A stretch of DNA of 11,494 nucleotides from a virus, in UHGV virus genome UHGV-1946849, one strand, 5' to 3'. Positions within the stretch are counted from its first letter, which is position 1. Each line of letters opens with the position of its first letter. Position numbers and translations under genes: made by a program. The notes below the pieces were generated by a model. It worked only from the letters and a program-made list of their open reading frames with translations, had not been told where the DNA came from and made no database searches. Shown in pieces: positions 5-11,494 of this stretch.

Positions 5-81
5 CTAGCGAATCACTCTTTAAAGAGCGAGAAAAAAGGCATGGAACAATATTTTATGCCTTTGTATTAACATGAATTTAA
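5..81. repeat. Left attachment-site direct repeat (attL candidate)
   Basis: 77 bp identical base for base to 11418..11494; identity breaks sharply at position 4 versus 11417. Contains a 7-bp stem inverted repeat AAGGCAT/ATGCCTT. Confidence 0.8.
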
Positions 82-213
82 AAGATTTTATTCTTACTGT
101 TTCATTTTCTGTAAATCATATATCCTCAGTATTTGACATTCATCACTCTAGCGGGAACAATACGACACAATAAGACACCTGATGACTCTTTAAGAAACGA
201 AAGGGGGGCAATA

Positions 214-402
214 GTGTTAAGCACTGATCGGTTTATACGTGAAAAAGAATGCGAAAAACTAACCGGCCTTAGCCGTACGTGTCGCTACCGCCTGGAAAAG
301 GCCGGACAATTCCCATCACGTCGTAAACTTGGCGGTCGTTCCGTTGGCTGGTCTTTATCCGAGGTTCTGGCCTGGAAGGATAGCTGCAAGGCAGTTCATT
401 AA
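214..402 (+). CDS. alpA: AlpA-family winged-helix transcriptional regulator / excisionase-like protein (62 aa from GTG 214; the track ORF extends to TTG 133)
   Basis: Translation RFIREKECEKLTGLSRTCRYRLEKAGQFPSRRKLGGRSVGWSLSEVLAW aligns with E. coli CP4-57 AlpA as recalled. GTG at 214 follows the Shine-Dalgarno AAGGGGGG (201..208); the upstream TTG at 133 lies inside a TTGACA hexamer. Confidence 0.8.
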   Translation: MLSTDRFIREKECEKLTGLSRTCRYRLEKAGQFPSRRKLGGRSVGWSLSEVLAWKDSCKAVH

Positions 403-547
403 TCACGCTGGCGGCACGCAGCCGCCACACATCAATCATCTGAACACAGAGCTATAACCATGAAGATTGAATATACGCCAGAACGTGGGCGGGGATTCGT
501 TCGCCCTGGTGAAACTGAAAAACAACAAAATTGGGGTTTTTCAGGTA

Positions 548-582
548 TAAAAAAAGCGGCCCCGAAATGGAGCCGCCTTTCT
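548..582 (-). terminator. Hairpin terminator, mainly for the leftward operon, possibly bidirectional
   Basis: A-run 548..555, stem GCGGC 556..560 and GCCGC 572..576, then CTTTCT; on the minus strand the stem is followed by TTTTTTT. Confidence 0.45.
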
Positions 583-671
583 GAACAGATAACCCGCTGC
601 GCCGTTTGTGTGTGTGATCCCAAACATAAGCACGGGGATGATAGCCGTTATCAGGCTGGTGGGCAATGCAA

Positions 672-845
672 TCAGTCTGGTTCAGTTCGTTGCCATACCT
701 GCAATGAGCGCTTTTCCCTGTACTCTTTAAGGAATTGCTCAAGGGCAAAAGCACATGGCGCGAATCTTTCTGATTCATGCTCTATCTTTCTGCGCCGTCT
801 TTTCCGTGCCGGTGATAATGTTTTGGTCAATTCTTTATCGGTCAT
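672..845 (-). CDS. Hypothetical small basic protein (57 aa), second gene of the leftward operon
   Basis: Minus-strand ORF with AGGA 7 nt upstream of the ATG at 845; protein-like K/R/E-rich sequence MTDKELTKTLSPARKRRRRKIEH...; followed by the 548..582 terminator. The track start at 860 lacks a ribosome-binding site. Confidence 0.35.
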   Translation of the reverse strand: MTDKELTKTLSPARKRRRRKIEHESERFAPCAFALEQFLKEYREKRSLQVWQRTEPD

Positions 846-902
846 TGTGTTGTCCTGCATAGCAATGCGCCGTAATACCTTACACCACGGCGCTGATGGT
901 GA

Positions 903-1082
903 TTACTCTGGTTCTTTGGCCTTGCGCCGCTGGCGATATTCAACTTCTCGTTTTAATGCCGCAGTAACAAATTGCCCCGTACTTTCGCCAGGCATTTTTA
1001 CCGCCTCAACATTGTTCATAACTTCATGCGGAACCCTTGCCGCAACGGTTTGTGATTTTGCGTTTACCGCTTTTGTCGCCAT
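903..1082 (-). CDS. Ribbon-helix-helix (Arc/CopG-like) DNA-binding protein, 59 aa, candidate repressor
   Basis: Hand translation of the minus strand gives MATKAVNAKSQTVAARVPHEVMNNVEAVKMPGESTGQFVTAALKREVEYRQRRKAKEPE. It shows the R-V-P-x-E-V strand, helix, G-x-S-T turn, helix pattern; GAGGGG ribosome-binding site 8 nt upstream. Below the 60-aa cutoff, so absent from the ORF track. Confidence 0.5.
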   Translation of the reverse strand: MATKAVNAKSQTVAARVPHEVMNNVEAVKMPGESTGQFVTAALKREVEYRQRRKAKEPE

Positions 1083-1132
1083 GTGGTGTACCCCTCATAA
1101 AAAACAAATGCAGTATGCAGGAAAAAAAATAA

Positions 1133-1184
1133 GTGTTCAACACTTGACGTGTTTAACACCTGGGTTTAAATTGGTGTTCAACAC
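1133..1184. promoter_or_regulatory. Divergent promoter region with three palindromic operators GTGTT(C/T)AACAC
   Basis: 11-bp palindromes at 1133..1143, 1149..1159 and 1174..1184. Rightward -35 TTGACG at 1144..1149 and -10 TAAATT at 1167..1172 (17-bp spacer); operators overlap the -35 and the predicted start. Confidence 0.55.
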
Positions 1185-1281
1185 CTTGTTGGCGCAAGGT
1201 GCAGAAACGACGAAACCCGGCAGTGCGCTAACACTAACCGGGCTTCTAACCACCAACGATAGCGAAAGTATCGAGGTAGCT

Positions 1282-1482
1282 ATGAGAAATCATACCACAC
1301 ACCCGCAAGGGCGGGACTCGCACAACCTGAATAAATACATCTGGCGTTTTATCGCCCTGAGCACGGCACAACCGCGCGTGATTACCATTGAGGCCACCAG
1401 CGAACAGGAAGCACGCCAGCAATCTCCGGCTGGCTGCGTGATGGTATTTGCTGCCCGTATTCGTCAGGGGGTAGGCTTATGA
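1282..1482 (+). CDS. Hypothetical protein (66 aa), first gene of the rightward operon
   Basis: ATG at 1282 preceded by GAGGT; its stop overlaps the next start (ATGA). It is the 3' part of the 460..1482 track ORF, whose upstream portion looks non-coding. Confidence 0.4.
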   Translation: MRNHTTHPQGRDSHNLNKYIWRFIALSTAQPRVITIEATSEQEARQQSPAGCVMVFAARIRQGVGL

Positions 1483-1709
1483 GCCAGGAAATCACACTAC
1501 AACAGGCAGCAGAACGCGCCCACCAAATCGAAGTTATTTGCGCACTGGCAGAGGATTACCCTGGCATGATGACCGACAGCGAATCAGGGGCAATCATCGG
1601 CTTACTTAAACGCCTTAGCGGTGAGGTCTGCGTATTCCTGAGCGATGAACAGGAAAGAAGAACGCTTATTTCTAACGAAAAAAAATGCGGAGGGGTACAT
1701 GTGCAATAA
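1479..1709 (+). CDS. Hypothetical protein (76 aa)
   Basis: ATG with upstream GGGGGTAGG; start overlaps the upstream stop; same strand as the operon. Confidence 0.5.
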   Translation: MSQEITLQQAAERAHQIEVICALAEDYPGMMTDSESGAIIGLLKRLSGEVCVFLSDEQERRTLISNEKKCGGVHVQ

Positions 1710-1920
1710 AACCACACCGGACGCAGCCGCCGCCGCGCTCACTACGCTGATGCACGCGCTTATTGATATTTCTGTTATTGCTGACAGGGCGCATAAACAC
1801 GCAGCCAGAGAATCAGAATGCATCTTCCATTTAGCATTTGTGCAGCTAAAAGCCGATCAGGCACTGGATAAGGCCGGAAAAATTATCATGGCTGATGTGC
1901 AGGAGGTGCACCATGCATAA
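1699..1920 (+). CDS. Hypothetical protein (73 aa from ATG 1699; the track ORF starts at 1645)
   Basis: ATG 1699 follows GGAGGGG (1689..1695) with a 3-nt spacer; no recognisable motif. Confidence 0.45.
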   Translation: MCNKTTPDAAAAALTTLMHALIDISVIADRAHKHAARESECIFHLAFVQLKADQALDKAGKIIMADVQEVHHA

Positions 1921-2278
1921 TCTGTCAATTTCTGACCTTAACAGCATTCAGTTTGATGAGAAATTTACCGGGCAGTTGCTGGTCAATGTGGAGAACGGGC
2001 GCATAGTGCGTAATTATCACCTGCCGGATGGTGCAATTGCCGGAAGCGTTGAAGCATTGCTGGAACTGGCGGAACGTGCGCGACTGATTAAGCCGTCAAC
2101 GAGCCATCACGATGATGATCTGCATTTTACCGGATGTATGGTGAGTCACTACGAAAACGGCGTCGAGGTATCCTGTGAACGGCTGCGTGATGATTGCTGT
2201 TTCGGCACACTGCCGGAATTTATCGAGTTGCTGACCAGTTGCGGTTATCAGGTCATTCAGGGGGGTAAACATGCGTGA
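1913..2278 (+). CDS. Hypothetical protein (121 aa from ATG 1913; the track ORF starts at 1895)
   Basis: AGGAGG ribosome-binding site 6 nt upstream of ATG 1913; overlaps the preceding stop. Confidence 0.5.
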   Translation: MHNLSISDLNSIQFDEKFTGQLLVNVENGRIVRNYHLPDGAIAGSVEALLELAERARLIKPSTSHHDDDLHFTGCMVSHYENGVEVSCERLRDDCCFGTLPEFIELLTSCGYQVIQGGKHA

Positions 2279-2504
2279 TGATCGTTTTAATTCCCTGAAA
2301 CAGGAATTTTCCGGCGTTCCTGATGATGCGGCTGATGCGCTTTCGTCAATGCCAGAACTTATTAGAGCGGCTTTTTTCTTACTTTCCACGAGAGAATATA
2401 AATCAACGGGGCTTGATGTACTGAATATCGCCGCCGATTATGCGGAATATGTGGCAGAGGCGCGTTATAGAAGAAAATTTCCTGAGGATGTAAGCCATGC
2501 GTGA
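2271..2504 (+). CDS. Hypothetical protein (77 aa)
   Basis: ATG after GGGGGGTAAAC; ATGCGTGA start/stop overlap with the upstream gene. Confidence 0.5.
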   Translation: MRDDRFNSLKQEFSGVPDDAADALSSMPELIRAAFFLLSTREYKSTGLDVLNIAADYAEYVAEARYRRKFPEDVSHA

Positions 2505-2730
2505 TATTTACCACGAAACAATAGACCGCGCATTTCTTGCACTTTCTCACAGTGAAAACATGCTGGAAATATTGCGCATATGGCTTGAAACACTTGGCGA
2601 CAATGAACGCGACAAACAAAAATCAAGAATTGCCACGGCATTAATAACGCTTCTTGAGCCTGTAATAATGGAACTGCAAGAAATAGATCTATTGCACGAC
2701 AGATATAAAGAACAGCACACCGGAGAATAA
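2497..2730 (+). CDS. Hypothetical protein (77 aa)
   Basis: Same ATGCGTGA overlap junction as at 2271; acidic, helical-looking sequence. Confidence 0.5.
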   Translation: MRDIYHETIDRAFLALSHSENMLEILRIWLETLGDNERDKQKSRIATALITLLEPVIMELQEIDLLHDRYKEQHTGE

Positions 2731-2735
2731 AAATA

Positions 2736-3035
2736 ATGAAACTTAAATATTCTGGCTTAACTGCCAGTGGCAACACTCACCCTAAATTTACGCGCGGCGA
2801 TATTTACCGCGACCAGTACGGCGGCACGGTAATGATTAAGGGCGTGGAAGAACGGCGCGTAACCTACCGCCGTGAAGGTTACGAATATGATTGCGTGATG
2901 CCTGTTTATCAGTTCCGGCGTGATTTTTCTCTGGTACAGACCGCGCCGCATAACGTGTCCACCAGCAACGCCAGGGCACGGGCAAACATCCAGAAGCTGA
3001 AAACCATGATTAACGGATTCAGGGGTAAAAAATGA
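2736..3035 (+). CDS. Hypothetical protein (99 aa) immediately upstream of and coupled to the primase gene
   Basis: GGAGA ribosome-binding site; stop overlaps the primase ATG (ATGA). Confidence 0.55.
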   Translation: MKLKYSGLTASGNTHPKFTRGDIYRDQYGGTVMIKGVEERRVTYRREGYEYDCVMPVYQFRRDFSLVQTAPHNVSTSNARARANIQKLKTMINGFRGKK

Positions 3036-4786
3036 AACTGGCACCGAACGTAAAACAGCAGTCACGCGGCATAAAACACAAAGAAACAGAAGTCATTATT
3101 TTTGCGGGTAGTGATGCCTGGTCACACGCAAAACAATGGCAGGGACATGACGCGCGTATGGCCGGAGATAATGAGCCTCCTGTGTGGCTTGGGGAGCAGC
3201 AGTTATCCGAACTGGATAAGCTGCAAATTGTGCCGGAAGGCAGAAAATCCGTGCGCATATTCAGGGCCGGATATCTTGCGCCAGTAATGATAAAGGCGAT
3301 TGGTCAGAAGCTGGCGGCGGCAGGCGTACAGGATGCAAATTTTTACCCTGATGGTATGCACGGTCAGAAGGTGGAGAACTGGCGCGAATATCTGGCCCGT
3401 GAGCGCCAGAATCTTTCTGATGGTCTGGTCATTGAGCTTCCGGTAAAGCAAAAGGCGCAACTTTCGCAGATGGCGGACAGTGAGCGCGCGCAGCTGCTTG
3501 CCGATCGCTTTGATGGCGTTTGCGTACATCCTGAAAGTGAAATCGTTCACGTATGGCGCGGCGGGGTATGGTGTCCGGTCAGCACAATGGAACTTAGCCG
3601 CGAAATGGTGGCGATCTATTCAGAGCACAGGGCCACTTTCAGCAAGCGCGTAATCAATAACGCCGTGGAAGCGTTAAAAGTTATTGCCGAACCAATGGGC
3701 GAGCCGTCCGGCGATTTGTTGCCGTTCGCCAATGGTGCGCTTGACCTGAAAACGGGGGAATTTTCCCCGCACACGCCGGAGAACTGGATCACCACGCACA
3801 ACGGCATTGAGTACACGCCACCAGCACCAGGGGAGAACATCCGCGATAACGCGCCAAACTTTCATAAATGGCTTGAGCACGCAGCCGGAAAAGACCCGCG
3901 CAAGATGATGCGTATATGTGCCGCGCTGTACATGATTATGGCGAACCGGTACGACTGGCAGATGTTTATTGAGGCCACCGGAGACGGCGGGAGCGGTAAA
4001 AGTACATTCACACACATAGCCAGCCTTCTGGCAGGGAAACAGAACACGGTAAGCGCTGAAATGACATCGCTTGATGATGCTGGTGGACGTGCGCAGGTTG
4101 TCGGGAGTCGTCTTATCGTCCTGGCTGACCAGCCGAAATATACAGGCGAAGGAACGGGCATCAAGAAAATCACGGGCGGTGACCCCGTGGAAATTAACCC
4201 GAAATACGAAAAGCGTTTCACGGCGGTAATCAGGGCGGTGGTGCTGGCGACCAACAATAACCCGATGATATTCACCGAACGGGCCGGAGGTGTGGCACGT
4301 CGTCGCGTGATTTTCCGTTTCGACAATATCGTCAGTGAGGCCGAAAAAGACAGGGAGCTACCGGAAAAGATCGCGGCTGAAATCCCTGTCATTATCCGCC
4401 GATTGCTGGCGAACTTTACCGACCCTGAGAAGGCACGGGCTTTACTACTGGAACAGCGTGACGGTGATGAAGCTCTGGCAATAAAGCAACAGACGGATCC
4501 GGTTATTGAGTTTTGCCAGTTCCTGAATTTTCTGGAGGAAGCACGCGGCCTGATGATGGGCGGCGGTGGCGATTCAGTGAAGTACACGACCAGAAACAGC
4601 CTTTACCGCGTCTATCTGGCGTTTATGGCGTACGCAGGCAGGAGCAAACCGCTAAACGTAAATGACTTTGGCAAGGCTATGAAGCCAGCCGCGAAAGTTT
4701 ACGGACATGAATATATTACGCGGAAAGTTAAGGGAGTAACGCAGACTAACGCAATAACAACAGACGAGTGCGACGCGTTTTTATAA
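3032..4786 (+). CDS. Replication protein: P4-family primase C-terminal domain / D5-N plus SF3 helicase (584 aa)
   Basis: Walker A GDGGSGKST, a D5-N-like segment LPFANGALDLKTGEF...NGIEY and an SF3 motif C VVLATNNNP; size and layout match Pri-Rep proteins of P4-like elements and PICIs. Confidence 0.88.
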   Translation: MKLAPNVKQQSRGIKHKETEVIIFAGSDAWSHAKQWQGHDARMAGDNEPPVWLGEQQLSELDKLQIVPEGRKSVRIFRAGYLAPVMIKAIGQKLAAAGVQDANFYPDGMHGQKVENWREYLARERQNLSDGLVIELPVKQKAQLSQMADSERAQLLADRFDGVCVHPESEIVHVWRGGVWCPVSTMELSREMVAIYSEHRATFSKRVINNAVEALKVIAEPMGEPSGDLLPFANGALDLKTGEFSPHTPENWITTHNGIEYTPPAPGENIRDNAPNFHKWLEHAAGKDPRKMMRICAALYMIMANRYDWQMFIEATGDGGSGKSTFTHIASLLAGKQNTVSAEMTSLDDAGGRAQVVGSRLIVLADQPKYTGEGTGIKKITGGDPVEINPKYEKRFTAVIRAVVLATNNNPMIFTERAGGVARRRVIFRFDNIVSEAEKDRELPEKIAAEIPVIIRRLLANFTDPEKARALLLEQRDGDEALAIKQQTDPVIEFCQFLNFLEEARGLMMGGGGDSVKYTTRNSLYRVYLAFMAYAGRSKPLNVNDFGKAMKPAAKVYGHEYITRKVKGVTQTNAITTDECDAFL

Positions 4787-4800
4787 TTTTTTGTAATTGC

Positions 4801-5026
4801 TGTCTACCCTGTCTACCTGAGTAAAGAAAAATACATTTAATTCAGTGCATTAAGTTAGGTAGATAGCCTTTTTTTACTGTCTACCCACTATCTACCCTCT
4901 CTACCTGATTTTACCTGAATCAGACAGGGAGGTAGACACGGGGTAGATAGTGGATAAAAGCACTCTACCCCGCTGAAAGCCGCGCCATTACTGGTATGAG
5001 GGCCACTAAGGTAGATAAGGTAGACA
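4801..5026. repeat. Iteron cluster, candidate replication origin / cis replication region
   Basis: At least 11 copies of (G/T)TCTACC(C) in both orientations (forward at 4802, 4811, 4879, 4890, 4900, 4964; reverse GGTAGA at 4858, 4931, 4942, 5010, 5019), non-coding, directly downstream of the primase gene. Confidence 0.6.
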
Positions 5027-5074
5027 AGGGGAGGCACAACTCAAAACTTTTTAAACGAGGGGGTAAAAATAAAT

Positions 5075-5353
5075 ATGCACACTTCAGGGAAATTTAATAA
5101 ATCACTCAAAAAACGCAGAGACAGAACAGAACCGAAATATCGCGCGTTAGACATGACAGAGCACGCTTTAAAGGTGGCAATCAGAACGATAGACCGCCAC
5201 GCGGGGGAAGGATACGCGAAAGCACATCCCGAACTGATAAGCGCATTCATGACCACGACGGCGGCAAATTTTGCCACGCTGACAGAGCGGGAGATTGCCG
5301 AAGCGGAACAGGTAACAACCATCAACGTTAAAACCGGAGAGGTGGAATCATGA
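5075..5353 (+). CDS. Hypothetical protein (92 aa), coupled to the ssb-like gene
   Basis: GAGGGGG ribosome-binding site upstream; stop overlaps the next ATG (ATGA). Confidence 0.55.
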   Translation: MHTSGKFNKSLKKRRDRTEPKYRALDMTEHALKVAIRTIDRHAGEGYAKAHPELISAFMTTTAANFATLTEREIAEAEQVTTINVKTGEVES

Positions 5354-5772
5354 CAGCACAGATAGCAGCTTACGGGCGGCTGGTGGACGACCCGCAGGTA
5401 AAACAGACCAGCAAGGGCACACCGATGACGCTGGCGCGTATGGCGGTCCCCCTTCCGTGCAGCCAGGCAGATGACGGAACGGCGACGATGTGGTTATCCG
5501 TCCTGGCATTTGGCAGACAGGCCGAAGCACTGGAAAGGCACCGCAAGGGTGAACTCCTGAGCGTGGCGGGTAACATGCAGATCAGCCAGTGGACTGGGCA
5601 GAACGGAGAAACGCGGCAGGGCTGGCAGGTTATCGCAGACAGTGTAATCAGTGCGCGAACGGCGCGACTGGGCGGCAAAAAAGGTCAACAGGGCCAGGCT
5701 ACTGACGCGCTGAACAGGGCAAAACAACAGGCGGGGAATGATGATCCGTACGGGGATAACATACCGTTTTAA
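5350..5772 (+). CDS. ssb: Single-stranded DNA-binding protein homologue (140 aa)
   Basis: OB-fold segment WLSVLAFGRQAEALERHRKGELLSVAGNMQISQWTGQNGETRQGWQVIADSV aligns with E. coli SSB [52 protein letters not shown]; Gly/Gln-rich linker; C-terminal DDPYGDNIPF resembles the SSB acidic tip DDDIPF. Confidence 0.8.
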   Translation: MTAQIAAYGRLVDDPQVKQTSKGTPMTLARMAVPLPCSQADDGTATMWLSVLAFGRQAEALERHRKGELLSVAGNMQISQWTGQNGETRQGWQVIADSVISARTARLGGKKGQQGQATDALNRAKQQAGNDDPYGDNIPF

Positions 5773-5787
5773 GCGACGAGTGACAGA

Positions 5788-5811
5788 AGCCGGAGCAATC
5801 CGGCTTTTTTA
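5788..5811 (+). terminator. Rho-independent terminator after the ssb-like gene
   Basis: Stem GCCGGA (5789..5794), loop GCAA, stem TCCGGC (5799..5804), then TTTTTT. Confidence 0.7.
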
Positions 5812-5860
5812 CGGGTCCTCCTGGCGGGGTGGGCCTGAACACGGGGCGGGAAGCGCGGAA
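5811..5860 (+). other. Degenerate cos-like relic (cosQ-like with a disrupted cosN)
   Basis: ACGGGTCCTCCTGG...ACGGGGCGGGAAGCGCGG parallels the intact copy at 8253..8300 (ACGGGTCCTTTCCGG...ACGGGGCGGCGACCTCGCGG), and the preceding terminator hairpin is duplicated too. Confidence 0.5.
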
Positions 5861-5990
5861 AAAAGCGCATTTTTGTGATTTTATCGTCATCATCATCATG
5901 AGCGTAATTTATTGTTTTTAATTGTTTTGATGCAAAAAAGATGATGGTTGTGGTTAATTTTCGTTCGACATCTTTGCAGGCAGATAAAAA

Positions 5991-6027
5991 AGCCCGATAA
6001 GGTCAGAGGTGGCTTATCGGGCTTTTG
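5991..6027. terminator. Strong hairpin, bidirectional terminator-like
   Basis: Perfect 11-bp inverted repeat AGCCCGATAAG / CTTATCGGGCT with an 11-nt loop, flanked by an A-run upstream and TTTT downstream. Confidence 0.5.
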
Positions 6028-6103
6028 CATATGAGGCTTTTTGGTGCACTGACACACATGAGCGGGATCATCATTTCATAATTTGCAACACAACTCAATA
6101 TCA

Positions 6104-6152
6104 TTGCACAAAACGCAATCCTGATTATAATCAGAGCTGGATGAACATCCAG
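6104..6152 (+). promoter_or_regulatory. Candidate sigma-70 promoter of the capsid operon with a 16-bp palindrome at the predicted start
   Basis: -35 TTGCAC (6104..6109), 16-bp spacer, -10 TATAAT (6126..6131); perfect palindrome CTGGATGAACATCCAG at 6137..6152. Confidence 0.5.
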
Positions 6153-6187
6153 TTATGATTTTTTAAGTCGAAGAGGAATTTCTTACT

Positions 6188-6394
6188 ATGGCTGAAGAGA
6201 AAAAAGGCGGTGTTTCGGTGTACATAAGCCCCGAAATCGTGGAGGTGCTCAAGCAGCGCCACAAAAAAAACTATGAGGCTGGCGTGGCGGCTGGACTGGA
6301 TCCGCTGATGACGCCGGAGCCGTCGATAGGTTCACTTGTACGCTCTTATTTACTTGCGGCGCTTGGGATGCATAAAAATTATGGGGGTGAATAA
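6188..6394 (+). CDS. Hypothetical small protein (68 aa) translationally coupled to the capsid gene
   Basis: AAGAGGA ribosome-binding site; stop TAA overlaps the capsid ATG (TAATG). Confidence 0.6.
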   Translation: MAEEKKGGVSVYISPEIVEVLKQRHKKNYEAGVAAGLDPLMTPEPSIGSLVRSYLLAALGMHKNYGGE

Positions 6395-7449
6395 TGGCAG
6401 GCAAAGCAACGGCACTTAACACTAACCAGCTTTTCATGTACCTGAATCGCGGGGATATTGCGGATTTTAAATTCAGCCCTCTGTTTACTACGCTGTTTTT
6501 CCCGAACGTGGCGACATTCAGCACGCAAAACATCATGCTGGATACCCTGGACATTGAAGAAGTCACCATGTCGGCGTTTTGTTCGCCTATGGTGGGTAGC
6601 CAGGTTCAGCGCGATAAAGGGTACGAAACCAGCACGATTAAACCTGGCTACATGAAGCCAAAGCACGAAATCGATCCAACGAAAACCATCATGCGCATGG
6701 CTGGAGAAGATCCGGCACAGCTTAACGACCCTACCTATCGCCGTATGCGCCTGATTACTGGCAATATGCGCCGCCAGATAAACGCCATAAAAGCGCGCGT
6801 GGAATGGCTGGCGGTAAATGCGGTAACGACCGGAAAAAACATCATTGAGGGCGAAGGCATAGAGCGCTATGAAATCGACTGGAAGATACCGGAAAAAAAC
6901 ATCATAGAGCAGGCCGACGGGAAAAAATGGTCAGCGCAGGACAAAGAAACCCACGATCCAATCTATGATATCGAACTATACGCCGATCAGGCTGGTTGCC
7001 CCGCAAACGTCATGATTATGGGCGCTGAGGTATGGCGAACGTTACGCAGCTTTAAAAAATTCCGTGAGCTGTACGATCTTTCCCGTGGTTCAGAATCCGC
7101 CGCCGAACTGGCCTGTAAAAACCTGGGCGAAGTGGTGAGCTTTAAAGGCTATCTTGGTGATCTGGCCCTTATCGTCTATTCCGGCAAATACACTGACAGC
7201 GATGGTACCGAAAAATATTTCCTTGAGCCTGATTTGCTGGTCCTAGGTAACACCAACAATAAAGGGCTGGTGGCCTATGGTGCGATAATGGATCAGGAAG
7301 CGGTAAGAACGGGCGCAACACAAAACATGTTTTACCCGAAAAACTGGATTGAGGACGGCGATCCGGCGATTGAGTACGTGCAGACACACAGTGCACCGCA
7401 GCCGGTACCGGCAGATATTCGCAAATTTGTTACCGTCAAAATTGGTTAA
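6394..7449 (+). CDS. Major capsid protein, lambda gpE-like (351 aa)
   Basis: Colinear similarity to lambda E as recalled: FSPLF..LFF, KPGYMKPKHEIDP, DPTYRRMR, GSESAAELACKNLGEVVSFKGYLGDLALIVYSGKYTD, LVLGNT, YPKNW, GDPA. Confidence 0.9.
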   Translation: MAGKATALNTNQLFMYLNRGDIADFKFSPLFTTLFFPNVATFSTQNIMLDTLDIEEVTMSAFCSPMVGSQVQRDKGYETSTIKPGYMKPKHEIDPTKTIMRMAGEDPAQLNDPTYRRMRLITGNMRRQINAIKARVEWLAVNAVTTGKNIIEGEGIERYEIDWKIPEKNIIEQADGKKWSAQDKETHDPIYDIELYADQAGCPANVMIMGAEVWRTLRSFKKFRELYDLSRGSESAAELACKNLGEVVSFKGYLGDLALIVYSGKYTDSDGTEKYFLEPDLLVLGNTNNKGLVAYGAIMDQEAVRTGATQNMFYPKNWIEDGDPAIEYVQTHSAPQPVPADIRKFVTVKIG

Positions 7450-7461
7450 CGGGGGGATTCT

Positions 7462-7797
7462 ATGGACACTCCATACATTGAGTTATTTGCAGGCAGTCAG
7501 CGGGTCGCCACGACGCTGGTACATTTTGCCGCTGATGCTGGCGTTATTCAGGAATTTACCCCGCTGATGCTGGCAGACAATGGCGAGTTTAAGCCGTGGG
7601 ATGGTCAGGAATCTGGCAAGGCTGTTTATCTGACCTCGTACCCTGTGGACACGTCAAAGCAGAAATCAGCACAGTGTTACAAGACGGGGATTTTCAATAT
7701 TGCCGCCGTTAACTGGCCTGAGAGCGTCGACACCGATGCGAAAAAATGCGCCGCCTTTGCGGGTTCCGGCGTATCCGTTCAGCCGCTGGCCCGATAA
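7462..7797 (+). CDS. Head decoration protein, lambda gpD-like (111 aa)
   Basis: FTPLMLAD, WDG, YKTGIFN, WPES and KKCAAFAGSG match the lambda D motifs TPLMLDT, WDG, YKSGTFR, WPEA and KKRTAFAGT. Confidence 0.82.
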   Translation: MDTPYIELFAGSQRVATTLVHFAADAGVIQEFTPLMLADNGEFKPWDGQESGKAVYLTSYPVDTSKQKSAQCYKTGIFNIAAVNWPESVDTDAKKCAAFAGSGVSVQPLAR

Positions 7798-7809
7798 GCA
7801 GGGGGAACG

Positions 7810-8223
7810 ATGGCAACGAATGAAAGCGTCATGACGCTACCGCTGGCGAGTAAATTTAAAGCCGAAGCGCGGGCAATGGCTGACAGAGGTTTATCAACCT
7901 ACGAGGCCGTATATCAACTCAACAAACTGGAAGAGCAGGACAAGCCGCGCGCTGATGCGATTATGGCGCTTCATGAACATAACGACTATCAGCCGCTGTT
8001 ACGTGCAATGGCAAACGTGCCATGTATTAGCGTCGATAATGCTCGTGAAATCCTGAACATGACCATAGAGCAGGAGCGCCCAAAGGTTGCGCCGGAGCTT
8101 ACCGCAGCCTTTGAAAACTTTATGGACATGCACAGCCCGAAAGCCGTATCACCCGGCATGGCATACGACGGCAGAAACCAGGGCGATGAAGGCGACGTCG
8201 ATCGCATACTGAAAACCATCTGA
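7810..8223 (+). CDS. Hypothetical protein (137 aa), last gene of the capsid operon
   Basis: GGGGGAA ribosome-binding site; followed by the terminator at 8229..8252. Confidence 0.6.
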   Translation: MATNESVMTLPLASKFKAEARAMADRGLSTYEAVYQLNKLEEQDKPRADAIMALHEHNDYQPLLRAMANVPCISVDNAREILNMTIEQERPKVAPELTAAFENFMDMHSPKAVSPGMAYDGRNQGDEGDVDRILKTI

Positions 8224-8228
8224 CATAA

Positions 8229-8252
8229 GGCCGGAGAAATCCGGCTTTTTTT
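8229..8252 (+). terminator. Rho-independent terminator
   Basis: Stem GCCGGA (8230..8235), loop GAAA, stem TCCGGC (8240..8245), then TTTTTTT; near-identical to the terminator at 5788..5811. Confidence 0.7.
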
Positions 8253-8310
8253 ACGGGTCCTTTCCGGCATATGGACCCGTTACGGGGCGGCGACCTCGCG
8301 GGTTTTCGCT
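8253..8310 (+). other. Lambda-type cos site (cosQ and cosN with the 12-nt cohesive end GGGCGGCGACCT at 8285..8296) with a truncated cosB
   Basis: ACGGGTCCTTTCCGG...GTTACGGGGCGGCGACCTCGCGGGTTTTCGCTATTTATGA matches the lambda cos junction as recalled; it then diverges to CGTTTTTCCGTG, and the Nu1-like gene starts only about 90 bp downstream. Confidence 0.85.
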
Positions 8311-8385
8311 ATTTATGACGTTTTTCCGTGAAGGTGACACCACCACCACTTGATTAATATTTAACCATGCAGTTAAGGTAACATT

Positions 8386-8820
8386 ATGATTGATAAAGCT
8401 TGTTTTGTAAGTCAGCAGGAAATAGCTGAACATTTCAAGGTTAACAGAACCACTATTCGCGCATGGACCAAACAGGGGATGCCGTATCTTAATGCGGATC
8501 GCGGAAAGTCTGGCGGTTATCACATCGGGCATACATTGCTTTGGTCTTCAGGTAAAAGCCGTCTTGAGACCATCAGATATCACGTAGAAACCAGTGCGCT
8601 GGAAAAAATTATGTTTGCCAGGCTGCTTTCATCTGAGCGTGACGAGTACTCCAGTGAAGAAACAGAACATCGATTTGATGAAGGTTTGCAGATTTACGGC
8701 TATTCACCGGAAGATGTGAGCAAGGCACGAAATAAAATGGCTGGCTTTCTGGCTGGGTGGCGTCATGCCATAAGCGTTCGCCGTGCCAGCATGGAGCAAT
8801 CAGCCGATACAGAACAGTAA
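8386..8820 (+). CDS. Small terminase (lambda Nu1)-like protein, candidate Rpp-type packaging-redirection factor (144 aa)
   Basis: N-terminus VSQQEIAEHFKVNRTTIRAWTKQGMPYLNADRGKSGGYHIGHTLLWSSGKS aligns with lambda Nu1 VNKKQLADIFGASIRTIQNWQEQGMPVLRGGGKGNEVLYDSAAVIKWYAER; no large terminase gene follows. Confidence 0.78.
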   Translation: MIDKACFVSQQEIAEHFKVNRTTIRAWTKQGMPYLNADRGKSGGYHIGHTLLWSSGKSRLETIRYHVETSALEKIMFARLLSSERDEYSSEETEHRFDEGLQIYGYSPEDVSKARNKMAGFLAGWRHAISVRRASMEQSADTEQ

Positions 8821-8887
8821 AGCCGATAACTTGTTAATCACTCGCAGCAATGCATGTGATTTGTGCACACTTTCGGTTAACTGGTTC

Positions 8888-9066
8888 GATGTCCGGTTTT
8901 AGTGTCTGTTTTTTGCGCATGTCCGGTTCATGGAAAGCATGTTTTTATATTTTTCATATGGTTAACTTGCAGAGAAACCGGACATGGATCCCGAAAAATT
9001 TTCATAAATAGTGAAAACGCGCGAGGTCGCCGCCCCGTAACGGGCCATAATTCCAGGAAGGACCCG
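8888..9066 (-). other. Second lambda-type cos site in inverted orientation, with a distinct cosB made of three ATGTCCGGTT elements
   Basis: Reverse complement of 9001..9066 reads ACGGGTCCTTCCTGG...GTTACGGGGCGGCGACCTCGCGCGTTTTCACTATTTATGAA (cohesive end at 9024..9035); R-like elements at 8889..8898, 8919..8928 and inverted at 8976..8985, with an AT-rich spacer between. Confidence 0.75.
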
Positions 9067-9099
9067 ACGACACCAGACTATCAGAGCGATGGGGGCACA

Positions 9100-9381
9100 A
9101 TGACAGAAGCCGAACTACTGGGATTAATCCGCCGCGTTACCGGAATCAGCCAGCAGCATGACGAACAGGCCACGCAGCCGGACAGCGTGACCGCCGAAAA
9201 TTACGCGCGTGTGGTTGCTGAGGTGATGCGCCGTGATGGTATCCAGCTTAATGATGTGGATATGCGCAACATACGGATCCGCGTTCTTGAAATGCTGGCC
9301 TACAATCGCCGCGTGGCACTGTATCGGGAAACGGAGAAAATTACGTACCACTGGAAGAAGCCGGAGCGGTTACGGCGTTAA
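9100..9381 (+). CDS. Hypothetical protein (93 aa from ATG 9100; the track ORF starts at 8902 inside the cos sequence)
   Basis: ATG 9100 preceded by GGGGG; upstream in-frame sequence is the inverted cos site. Confidence 0.5.
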   Translation: MTEAELLGLIRRVTGISQQHDEQATQPDSVTAENYARVVAEVMRRDGIQLNDVDMRNIRIRVLEMLAYNRRVALYRETEKITYHWKKPERLRR

Positions 9382-9397
9382 CGAGTAGCGACATACC

Positions 9398-9556
9398 GTG
9401 ACGGAGAGTGACAACCAGTGACACGCCGTGACAAAAGACGGTTTAACCGTTAATTAAAAATTGACGGGATTTTGTGCTTTCCGGACGACGTGACCAACGT
9501 CATTTTTTAGCGAAAAGTTCTGATTAAGGTCATTGTCTGAATGGTCATAATGACCA
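9398..9556. promoter_or_regulatory. Array of GTGAC-family binding-site repeats
   Basis: Four GTGAC copies at exactly 10-bp phasing (9398, 9408, 9418, 9428), an inverted pair GTGACCAACGTCAT (9490..9503), and the palindrome TGGTCATAATGACCA (9542..9556). Confidence 0.5.
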
Positions 9557-9717
9557 CTCCTACAAAACAGGTAAAGCCCACCAGCCTGATTAACAGTTAA
9601 CCGGAAAAAAAATCCGGTAGCCCCGTTATGGGGATCCCCATATCAACATTAACGCCCCTCATGAATTAGCGCGCTTCCCCCTGGAAAGATGACCCGCCTG
9701 TATATTTCTTGTGTCTA

Positions 9718-10012
9718 TTTGTTCCACGTTGTTTCATACAGTGCACCGAACGGTGTAGTCACTGGTGTAGTCATTTTGCGATTTATGGCACTTTTTGTAG
9801 TGCAAATCATTTAATTAAATCAATGCGTTAAGTGAAATTAGTTATATATAACAGCATTTTATCATTTAGTGTTTTTTGCTGTTTCATAATGTTTCAGGCT
9901 GTGCATTATGTTTTTGATTATCAACAGATTTGTGATTTTCCTTGTTCCAGCTTGTTTCACGTTGTAGCCCTTTGTGCAACGATCGGTGTAGTCACTGGTG
10001 TAGTCACTTTTT
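9718..10012. repeat. Duplicated element of about 60 bp upstream of int, each copy ending in tandem GGTGTAGTCA repeats
   Basis: CGGTGTAGTCACTGGTGTAGTCA at 9751..9773 and 9984..10006 with similar upstream context, flanking an AT-rich stretch of about 200 bp. Confidence 0.6.
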
Positions 10013-10031
10013 CGTAAAGAGGGGGTAAAAC

Positions 10032-11261
10032 GTGAGCAGAGCAATGAACAAACTGAGCGATACCTTGCTAAGGAAACTTCATGGTAAGCCAGCGGAGAAA
10101 AACACGTTTTATAGTGATGGCGGAAACCTGAGCGTGAAATATTTAACATCAGGGAAATTGACCTGGTATTTCACATACAGGGCCGGAACGGGAAGGGAGA
10201 CACGACCCGAACGCATTAAGCTGGGAAGTTATCCTGATCTGAGCCTGAAAGCAGCCAGGGAAAAAGCCGCACAGTGTCGCACATGGCTGGCTGAGGGGAA
10301 AAATCCACGTCATGAGATGAATTACACCGTACAGGAAGCGTTAAAGCCCGTAACGGTTGGCGATGCGCTCACCTACTGGCTTGAGTATTACGTAAAGGAA
10401 AACCGCGTGGATTATATCGCCCTGAAAAGGCGACTTAATAATCACGTAATACAGCAGATTGGTGCTATGCCGCTGGATAAATGCGAGCTACGGCACTGGC
10501 TGGCCTGTTTTGACCAGGTGGTAAAGCGAACGCCTGTTACTGCCGGATTCGTGCTACAGGCGTGCAAACAGGCGCTTAAGTTCTGCCGTAGGCGGCGCTA
10601 TGCAATCAGCAACGTTCTGGACGATCTGAACGTTGCGGACGTTGGGAAAAAACCGGATATAAGCGAACGTGTCTTAAGTAACAAAGAACTTGGCGAATTA
10701 TTGCAGGCACTGGACAAAAAAATATTCTCCCCTTACTACGTCGCGTTAATCCGCCTCCTGATTGTCTTCGGAGCCAGAACGGTAGAACTGAGGTTATCGG
10801 AGATCGGGGAGTGGGATTTTACGGAAATGCTATGGACCGTTCCGAAGGAGCACAGCAAAACGAAGGTCGCAATATTCCGGCCCATACCGGAAGCGATCCT
10901 GCCGTTCGTCACGCAGCTGGTGGAGCAGAACAGGCACACGGGCTTATTGCTGGGGGAAGTGAAACAGGAGGCCAGCGTATCGCAGTATGGAAGATTAGCG
11001 CACAGGAGGCTTAATCACCCTCACTGGTCACTGCATGACATCCGGCGCACCTTTACAACCATGCTGAACGATTTAGGCGTTGATCCGCATGTCGTGGAGC
11101 AGCTTACAGGCCACCAGATGCCAGGAATGCAGCGAGTTTATAATCATTCCCGTTATCTGGATGCGAAACGCAATGCGCTGGATATGTGGACGGAGCGGTT
11201 AGGGATACTGGCGGGAACACATGAAAACGTAACCACGCTACCCGTAGCCAGAAGAAAATAA
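10032..11261 (+). CDS. int: Tyrosine recombinase, P4-type integrase with N-terminal arm-binding domain (409 aa)
   Basis: N-terminal arm-binding-domain pattern (DGGNLSVKYLTSGKLTWYFTYR...IKLGSYPDLSLKAAREKA); catalytic region with R..HDIRRT..LTGH..Y residues; GTG start after GAGGGGG. Confidence 0.93.
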   Translation: MSRAMNKLSDTLLRKLHGKPAEKNTFYSDGGNLSVKYLTSGKLTWYFTYRAGTGRETRPERIKLGSYPDLSLKAAREKAAQCRTWLAEGKNPRHEMNYTVQEALKPVTVGDALTYWLEYYVKENRVDYIALKRRLNNHVIQQIGAMPLDKCELRHWLACFDQVVKRTPVTAGFVLQACKQALKFCRRRRYAISNVLDDLNVADVGKKPDISERVLSNKELGELLQALDKKIFSPYYVALIRLLIVFGARTVELRLSEIGEWDFTEMLWTVPKEHSKTKVAIFRPIPEAILPFVTQLVEQNRHTGLLLGEVKQEASVSQYGRLAHRRLNHPHWSLHDIRRTFTTMLNDLGVDPHVVEQLTGHQMPGMQRVYNHSRYLDAKRNALDMWTERLGILAGTHENVTTLPVARRK

Positions 11262-11278
11262 TTTTTTTCGTGTTTTTT

Positions 11279-11355
11279 CAGTATGCGCATACTGGATATG
11301 CGAACAGATACAACGTGCAACAATGAGCAACAATGTGGAACAACTACGAACAAGA
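11279..11355. promoter_or_regulatory. Candidate integrase arm-type / accessory sites next to the right repeat
   Basis: Perfect 16-bp palindrome CAGTATGCGCATACTG (11279..11294) and (C/G)AACAA repeats at about 10-bp phasing (11302..11355, including GCAACAATG twice). Confidence 0.4.
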
Positions 11356-11417
11356 GGCGAAAAAGCGTACGGATTTATAAGTAGCTGATTTTTAATGTGT
11401 TACTGGTTTTTTGTACA

Positions 11418-11494
11418 CTAGCGAATCACTCTTTAAAGAGCGAGAAAAAAGGCATGGAACAATATTTTATGCCTTTGTATTAACATGAATTTAA
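11418..11494. repeat. Right attachment-site direct repeat (attR candidate)
   Basis: Identical to 5..81; the window ends at the repeat end, so the identity could extend further. Confidence 0.8.

Follow-up and report, generated by a model that had tools for sequence, protein, structure and literature searches.

A Four-Gene Capsid Block in an Excised Satellite

The viral genome UHGV-1946849 (hereafter the window, the whole stretch of 11,494 nucleotides [nt] that was analyzed) is the excised circular form of a phage-inducible chromosomal island (PICI) of the EcCICFT073 family, 11,417 bp in length. Between positions 6188 and 8223 it carries a block of four genes that includes homologs of the major capsid protein (gpE) and the head decoration protein (gpD) of phage lambda. 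Within a mosaic family of satellites, no other part is as well conserved as this block, which, judging from substitution patterns, is kept intact by purifying selection. The assignment of the element and its genes, as an EcCICFT073-type PICI with the c1498–c1501 "capsid morphogenesis" block, is close to certain. Our best overall explanation joins this identity to a proposal that products of the block act together as a kit for building shells, and on balance we favor it slightly. The capsid genes in this PICI have already been described, and what was observed is not new; interest remains in the role of a strongly conserved block, the rest being already published.

The four genes are co-oriented and tightly spaced and lie behind a conserved control region of their own. 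Features of the block are as follows (positions are those of the window; aa, amino acids):

6060..6187, + strand, conserved upstream control region of the capsid block, with a dyad, a −10-like sequence, and a hairpin
6188..6394, + strand, 68-aa protein (c1498 equivalent); its stop overlaps the E start codon (TAATG)
6394..7449, + strand, major capsid protein of the lambda gpE family (E; c1499 equivalent), 351 aa, PF03864
7462..7797, + strand, head decoration protein of the lambda gpD family (D; c1500 equivalent), 111 aa, HDPD
7810..8223, + strand, homolog of the gpC/Nu3 C-terminal domain and candidate scaffold (c1501 equivalent), 137 aa, phrog_1999
8230..8251, + strand, terminator-like hairpin and T-run GCCGGAGAAATCCGGCTTTTTT that closes the block; a 95% repeat of 5789–5810

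The original prediction, made from the letters of the window, placed lambda E-like and D-like genes at exactly these coordinates, and profile searches bear it out. The E product matches Pfam Phage_cap_E (PF03864) over its full length (E-value 4.8e-52; 177.5 bits against a gathering cut-off of 22.9) and phrog_29 (4.4e-108), and belongs to the lambda gpE family, which has the HK97 fold. It aligns with lambda gpE over 327 aa at 44% identity (E-value 6e-94), is matched by the gpE chains solved by cryo-electron microscopy (7VI9) at 2e-82, and is 97.7% identical to c1499 of strain CFT073 and ∼98% identical to PDB 3BQW, a "putative capsid protein of prophage" (E-value 5e-235). The D product falls in PF02924 (2.9e-17; 63.3 bits against a gathering cut-off of 29.1). 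It is 98.2% identical to CFT073 c1500 and 36% identical to lambda gpD, a chain of which matches it at 3.5e-9; a second solved decoration protein, PDB 1TD0, matches at 1.9e-13. As had been predicted, D lies downstream of E, the reverse of the order in lambda (D at 5747–6079, E at 6135–7160) and in the CFT073 helper prophage.

A portal, protease, and large terminase were expected to be missing from the window and were not found. Pfam and PHROG scans of 20 open reading frames (ORFs) in the window recovered no homolog of these proteins or of W, FI, or FII, and tblastn searches of the window with head proteins of lambda and CFT073 phage 4 (A, W, B, C, FI, FII, D, and E) matched D and E only. The range 6188–8223 given in the original prediction contains, besides E and D, two further genes of 68 and 137 aa.

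The expectation that there is no scaffold is probably wrong. The 137-aa protein shares phrog_1999 with Nu3 and gpC, and the claim therefore most likely does not hold. This profile covers the whole protein (1.4e-61), matches residues 117–200 of lambda Nu3 (2.7e-26), and matches along its full length residues 365–501 of the gpC-type S49 protease/scaffold protein of CFT073 phage 4 (1.5e-68). A weaker match of the 137-aa protein (2.3e-9) is to the tail of phrog_53, a "head maturation protease" family. In BLASTP, it aligns with residues 416–493 of the helper gpC (36% identity over 83 aa, E-value 6.6e-10), and tblastn against all phage records gives the same gpC alignment in one lambdoid phage (8e-5). 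The aligned proteins share the motifs RIMA..EA....L...P.MTV..AR.IL and F..FM..HSP.AV. With the 137-aa protein as query, word-indexed and exhaustive protein searches yielded almost exclusively close relatives; identity to CFT073 c1501 is 89.8%. A single-sequence AlphaFold2 (AF2) model is all-helical, with a predicted local distance difference test (pLDDT) score of 42 that makes it unusable. Most likely, the protein is homologous to the C-terminal domain common to lambda gpC and Nu3, which makes it a candidate scaffold.

The 68-aa protein belongs to phrog_3255 (8.5e-46), a family of unknown function. Its AF2 model (pLDDT 72) has two helices and no fold match in PDB (best E-value 2.2). A guess that it is a ribbon-helix-helix regulator is unsupported, as the fold search gave no match.

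Upstream of the 68-aa gene, the control region contains the dyad ATTGCA-N7-GCAAT, the −10-like sequence TGATTATAAT, and then a leader hairpin with a T-run at 6135–6164, within which 6135–6154 is a terminator-like match. In an alignment, the region is strongly conserved across PICIs of Escherichia coli and one PICI of Salmonella. This architecture points to control of the capsid block by an activator or by antitermination. A comparison with the late-promoter region of the helper prophage found no similarity.

Conservation and Selection of the Capsid Block

Of 5,426 complete E. coli genomes, 598 (∼11%) carry the capsid block, nearly always at full length. Across seven diverged copies, all four genes keep the same length, except for the third gene, which is 115 aa in the most divergent copy. 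Ratios of nonsynonymous to synonymous change (dN/dS) among these copies are low. For E, they are 0.06–0.17 in most pairs and 0.25 in the closest pair, with dS reaching ∼1.0; for D, the range is 0.06–0.42. Values for the 137-aa gene are mostly 0.2–0.5 and those for the 68-aa gene mostly 0.1–0.4, rising to 0.76 where few changes were counted. Of 80 IMG/VR loci, all have an intact E, 79 an intact 68-aa gene, 78 an intact D, and 69 an intact 137-aa gene; most of the shortfalls occur where contigs end. Because the loci were picked as best matches to E, the count for E is partly circular; the counts for D and for the 68-aa and 137-aa genes are not. At the same loci, the packaging protein is of the RppA type in only 18, and the int and pri/replication modules vary.

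These counts and ratios bear on the explanation that the block is what is left of a lambdoid head module that was once captured and is now decaying without a function. Such a relic would fit the absence of a phenotype for c1499 (PMC6092414), and a degenerate cos-like repeat upstream of the block hints at past recombination. However, dN/dS is well below 1 at high dS, E is intact at 80 of 80 loci, and no part of this mosaic family, which spans four genera, is better conserved than the block. We rejected a decaying relic on the basis of dN/dS and the intactness counts, and consider this explanation highly improbable.

The E-then-D pair was found only in satellites with an int-alpA-rep organization, in E. 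coli (at several attachment sites), Salmonella, Serratia, and Edwardsiella. Satellite E proteins are 51–98% identical to one another and 39–48% identical to those of phages, including their own helper's, and D proteins show the same pattern, being closer to each other than to phage D. No phage record has an E protein above 48% identity. These comparisons indicate that E and D are an old satellite-specific lineage under selection that does not track helpers and is neither a recent capture nor a relic. A scan of genome contigs with the E protein found no relative, probably because it covered one genome per species and used exact peptide seeds only.

Some relatives are embedded in late genes of their helpers, within the E gene (L015, 2511–14073), within the portal gene (L018, 765–12681), or among tail genes (L006 and L017), and each of these four carries its own E-then-D pair. 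Mageeney 2023 (PMC10111431) proposed that the pair is a backup copy: relatives integrate in helper late genes, most often E, and their own E and D replace the interrupted function. Under this explanation, the genes in the chromosomally integrated island studied here would be a carry-over. The embedded relatives in E, portal, and tail regions are what it predicts. Against it, this island and EcCICFT073 are at chromosomal sites, yet selection is equally strong; satellites that interrupt portal or tail genes keep the pair too; and the helper D is uninterrupted, yet the satellite retains a D of its own. We consider both the backup function and the carry-over unlikely.

Proposed Role of the Block

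We suggest, as a possibility that we hold a little short of even, that E, D, and the Nu3-like protein act together as a kit for making shells. After helper induction, E would polymerize on the helper portal, guided by the Nu3-like protein, and the helper would supply protease, terminase, and tail. DNA entry would lead to shell expansion, and the cognate D would then lock the shell. The shells would most likely be helper-sized (triangulation number T=7), each holding about four island copies; four times 11,417 bp is 45.7 kb, which fits a lambda-sized head. RppA and the two cosN sites would redirect helper TerS/TerL to satellite DNA, as they do in the near-identical EcCICFT073. The kit would be an accessory, as helper E and D are expected to suffice with lambda, phi80, or CFT073 phage 4, and loss of the block would therefore not abolish transfer in the laboratory.

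In lambda, gpD can bind the E lattice only once DNA has entered and the lattice has expanded. That selection acts on a cognate D co-inherited with E and the Nu3-like protein thus suggests that shells of satellite E do assemble, undergo expansion, and retain DNA. If so, the argument from selection on D favors real capsid formation over a role purely as a poison or decoy. A stronger version of the proposal, in which the intact four-gene block is a self-contained kit that builds satellite-encoded heads on the helper portal, possibly of a size other than that of the helper, is rather unlikely in our estimation.

Several published and comparative results weigh against the proposal. In EcCICFT073, c1499 and c1500 were described and deleted, with no effect reported on interference and with transfer left largely intact (Fillol-Salom 2018; PMC6092414). 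The same study reports that packaged DNA is phage-sized and that c1499 is without phenotype, an account repeated by Dokland 2019 (PMC6893505). When c1498–c1501 were replaced by cas9, transducing particles were still obtained (Ibarra-Chavez 2020; PMC10530653). No experiment reports the c1499, c1500, or c1501 proteins in particles, and at 44–47% identity to helper E, the satellite protein may not be compatible with helper portal, protease, and FI. The link of the 137-aa protein to Nu3 is at the level of profiles: BLASTP against lambda Nu3 and lambda gpC gave no significant match, and tblastn from the gpC side (E-value ≤ 0.01) misses the 137-aa gene. Lastly, the third gene is not universal, being missing or AlpA-like in more distant satellites.

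The construction of the published islands affects how these results are read. In the supplementary strain list of the 2018 study, c1501 is the 137-aa gene, there unannotated; the tetA-marked island is c1501::tetA, and the deletions of c1499 and c1500 were made in that background. The only lambda and phi80 lysogens with the island carry c1499::cat (PMC6092414), and a 2019 study (PMC6739421) likewise used the cat island. The markers sat inside the block, and the reports of phage-sized DNA and of no phenotype therefore come from islands without the capsid gene or with an interrupted scaffold-like gene. Published islands being c1499::cat or c1501::tetA, the block has apparently never been studied intact. 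If satellite heads do form, they would have been missed so far because the marked EcCICFT073 derivatives had c1499 replaced or c1501 interrupted.

The size of the shells separates the proposal from an explanation in which small capsids, assembled on the helper portal from E, D, and the Nu3-like protein, each hold one 11.4-kb genome and exclude helper DNA, in a mode like that of SaPIbov5 Ccm or PmCI172. The island is P4-sized (11,417 bp) and encodes a capsid protein, a cognate decoration protein, and a scaffold-domain homolog. There is precedent in PmCI172, a Gram-negative PICI with a capsid homolog that makes small heads (PMC6092414), and the published negative comes from islands that lack c1499 or are disrupted in c1501. 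Nevertheless, packaged DNA was phage-sized and no band corresponding to a PICI monomer was seen after induction of CFT073 derivatives (PMC6092414), and islands whose size is kept at an exact fraction of the helper genome are transferred better (PMC6092414; PMC10530653). If capacity scales with volume (T to the power 1.5), we estimate ∼21 kb for a lambda-type shell of T=4, which would fit neither one nor two copies, and only a T=3 shell (∼13.6 kb) would fit one, whereas four copies (45.7 kb) suit the T=7 lambda head. The sequence gives no indication of size, and positive evidence for small shells is nil. Small capsids are accordingly improbable in our assessment.

Alternatively, the proteins may interfere with other phages, acting as a poison or decoy that disrupts or titrates capsid assembly of the helper or of competitor lambdoid phages. 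In variants of this explanation, the Nu3-like tail would occupy gpC/Nu3 sites on helper E, or host capsid-sensing defenses would be diverted. The 137-aa protein does mimic the last ∼137 residues of the natural helper's gpC, satellite E is far diverged from helper E, and PICIs commonly interfere with their helpers (PMC6092414). But when EcCICFT073 genes downstream of the origin were expressed singly from pBAD18, only c1503 (rppA) reduced plaques of lambda and phi80, and deletion of rppA restored plating almost fully (PMC6739421). Mutants of c1499 or c1500 still interfered (PMC6092414), and a poison needs no conserved cognate decoration protein. Interference and its variants therefore have, in our view, a low probability, and we retain the shell kit as the preferred role.

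Purifying selection, a Nu3-type scaffold-domain homolog in c1501, and markers inside the block in the reference experiments make the question directly testable. Satellite-specific heads, if they form, would change the view of how PICIs depend on helpers, of host range, and of PICI-based delivery vectors, current engineered versions of which delete exactly the c1498–c1501 block. If they do not form, the island is a textbook Type A PICI.

Packaging Sites and the Flanks of the Block

Packaging through cos sites, as originally predicted, is well founded: two exact cosN sequences flank a gene for RppA that is 98.6% identical to the characterized one. The features concerned are as follows:

5776..5860, + strand, hairpin and T-run, then a cos-like segment in degenerate form; repeats the cos1 region in direct orientation
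8285..8296, + strand, cosN of cos1, exact GGGCGGCGACCT
8386..8820, + strand, rppA (redirecting phage packaging protein), 144 aa, 98.6% identical to CFT073 c1503
9024..9035, − strand, cosN of cos2, exact match, inverted relative to cos1

The window has two exact cosN sequences compared with 0.03 expected by chance. The cos regions form a 78-nt inverted repeat (8254–8331 and 8989–9066; 82% complementary), point in opposite directions, and bracket rppA. The RppA product matches the RppC crystal structure PDB 6HLK (4.5e-31); the function of RppA and the cos/Rpp mechanism have been described (PMC6739421). EcCICFT073 is induced by a lambdoid helper in an AlpA-dependent manner and replicates itself, and its RppA redirects helper TerS to the island cos (PMC6092414; PMC6739421).

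The capsid block is retained while packaging modules are swapped. In relatives L007–L010, L014, and L012, the slot corresponding to 8386–8820 holds a gene of ∼180 aa for a Nu1-family "terminase small subunit" rather than the 144-aa RppA; in L012, this gene is on the opposite strand.

The segment at 5776–5860 aligns with 8217–8321 and with the reverse complement of cos2. They have ACGGGTCCT and ACGGGGCGG in common and diverge in the right half of cosN. The capsid block is thus flanked by direct repeats of a terminator-cos motif, the third, degenerate copy being oriented as cos1. These repeats are perhaps a trace of how the block was acquired.

The Circular Form, Its Attachment Site, and Other Genes

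The original prediction described a complete satellite of ∼11.4 kb, with int, alpA, and primase genes and only part of a head module, and this description is borne out; the window closes into a unit of 11,417 bp. Remaining features are as follows:

5..81, no strand, terminal overlap of the circular assembly; 77-nt copy of 11418–11494
214..402, + strand, alpA (AlpA-family regulator/excisionase), PF05930 1.5e-16
3032..4786, + strand, pri (D5_N/DUF5906 primase-helicase), Pfam D5_N 1.3e-15, phrog_864 1.2e-175; 99.3% identical to EcCICFT073 Pri
4787..5075, no strand, probable replication origin with TCTACC/GGTAGA iterons, in the gap after pri
5350..5772, + strand, single-strand DNA-binding protein (SSB), PF00436 4.9e-15
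9100..9381, + strand, 93-aa conserved hypothetical protein, phrog_1561 5.9e-56; 91% identical to its CFT073 counterpart, which follows rppA in EcCICFT073
9848..9856, no strand, attP core ATAACAGCA, where the island right end is joined to the left end
10032..11261, + strand, tyrosine integrase, Arm-DNA-bind_3 1.5e-18, Phage_integrase 2.9e-16; 91% identical to EcCICFT073 Int

Positions 5–81 and 11418–11494 are an exact direct repeat of 77 nt with a spacing of 11,413. We rejected these end repeats as attachment (att) sites, as both copies map to one chromosomal place and are an assembly overlap. The window is 99.9% identical to an island in the chromosome of E. coli O18:H1 CFSAN067215, where the matching pieces are in swapped order: window 9848–11494 is the left end of the integrated island and 5–9856 is the remainder. 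At the junction in the window, the flank left of attR is joined to the flank right of attL around the 9-nt core, which is found at attL, attR, and attP. A second assembly, the IMG/VR contig L019, has the same attP junction of the excised form. We conclude that the window is an excised circle because its end overlap maps to a single chromosomal place and because the attP junction is present.

The CFSAN067215 copy interrupts tqsA, and ordinary host genes (pntAB and mdtJI) are on either side; head genes just outside the repeats, the finding that was to overturn the original prediction, are absent from this locus. The circular sequence and the host genes that flank the chromosomal copy rule out a fragment of a larger prophage. 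Gene order is that of EcCICFT073.

The start of alpA at 214 agrees with that of the RefSeq coding sequence in the 99.9% identical island. Of 12 copies of the hexamer TCTACC/GGTAGA in the window, 11 are within the 289-nt gap after pri (2.5% of the window), in both orientations. The gap is probably the replication origin, and a location 3′ of pri agrees with published PICI origins (PMC6092414).

A 76-nt direct repeat (9702–9777 and 9935–10010; 76% identity) has one copy on each side of the attP core, and each copy ends with a doubled GGTGTAGTCA(C) motif. The two copies are probably arm-binding sites of the integrase. A 340-aa ORF at 460–1482 is probably spurious; in this stretch, RefSeq has an Icd-like pseudogene, a YlcI/YnfO gene on the opposite strand, and a second Icd-like gene.

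Comparison with Known Systems

The island has the features of a classical enterobacterial PICI (SatelliteFinder "Type A"): an integrase and a short att repeat, AlpA next to int, a primase with a candidate origin 3′ of it, a capsid-family gene, and an Rpp protein with cos sites. Its size is within the ∼10–15 kb of such elements, and no tail, lysis, portal, or large-terminase genes were found by Pfam/PHROG scans or tblastn. The premise of the original prediction that classical PICIs have no capsid protein of their own disagrees with published surveys. Mageeney 2023 (PMC10111431) counted 21 reference Gram-negative PICIs with a capsid gene among 29, and "capsid morphogenesis" is one of five core PICI components and typical of enterobacterial PICIs (de Sousa 2023; PMC10085698; SatelliteFinder). 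The most conserved part of this satellite family, E and D, is thus also a listed core component.

The closest known system is EcCICFT073 (Fillol-Salom 2018, 2019), the prototype of Gram-negative PICIs, for which helper induction, replication, and transfer have been shown experimentally (PMC6092414). The order of features is the same in both: int, alpA, small ORFs, DUF4222, pri, origin, ssb, the 68-aa gene, E, D, the 137-aa gene, cos1, rppA, cos2, and the 93-aa gene. They differ in attachment site (tqsA here, the roxA-phoQ interval in CFT073), in the 68-aa protein (68% identical) and SSB (72%), and in a PerC gene of EcCICFT073 that has no counterpart here. Helper-embedded PICIs such as 11capE (Mageeney 2023) have the family layout and the E-then-D pair in common with this island. 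However, they lie inside helper late genes, their E is 53–64% identical to that of this island (85% in L006), and their third gene is often AlpA-like rather than Nu3-like.

Capsid-forming PICIs (EcCIEDL933; Alqurainy 2023) have a related int/alpA/rep left half and their own HK97-fold capsid protein. They additionally encode protease, portal, head-tail connectors, HNH, TerS, and TerL and have been shown to make small capsids of their own, whereas Pfam/PHROG scans and tblastn found no portal, prohead protease, adaptor/connector, TerL, or HNH here. It is conceivable, though we think it doubtful, that a shell kit is a strategy between those of classical PICIs, with all-helper capsids, and capsid-forming PICIs, with a full head set.

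SaPIbov5 and PmCI172 likewise have a lone capsid-protein homolog without portal or terminase, and SaPIbov5, as is this island, is packaged by cos helpers. Ccm has been shown to redirect capsid size and shape; this island adds a cognate decoration protein and a scaffold-domain homolog. The comparison with Ccm and PmCI172 is drawn from the literature and involves no sequence relationship. Satellite phage P4 is of similar size (11.6 kb compared with 11.4 kb here) and has cos packaging, an integrase, an AlpA-like regulator, and a D5-type primase in common with the island. P4 has no capsid protein and instead uses Sid, an external scaffold, and Psu, a decoration protein, on P2 gpN; Sid, Psu, Delta, and Ash/epsilon are not among the Pfam/PHROG matches of the window.

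Relative to the C/Nu3-D-E genes of lambda, the block has homologous E (44% identity) and D (36%) and, at the level of profiles, the Nu3 C-terminal domain. The order is E-D-Nu3C here and Nu3-D-E in lambda. The Nu3-like protein is free-standing, has 137 aa, and comes without a protease, and the E and D of satellites form a separate deep lineage.

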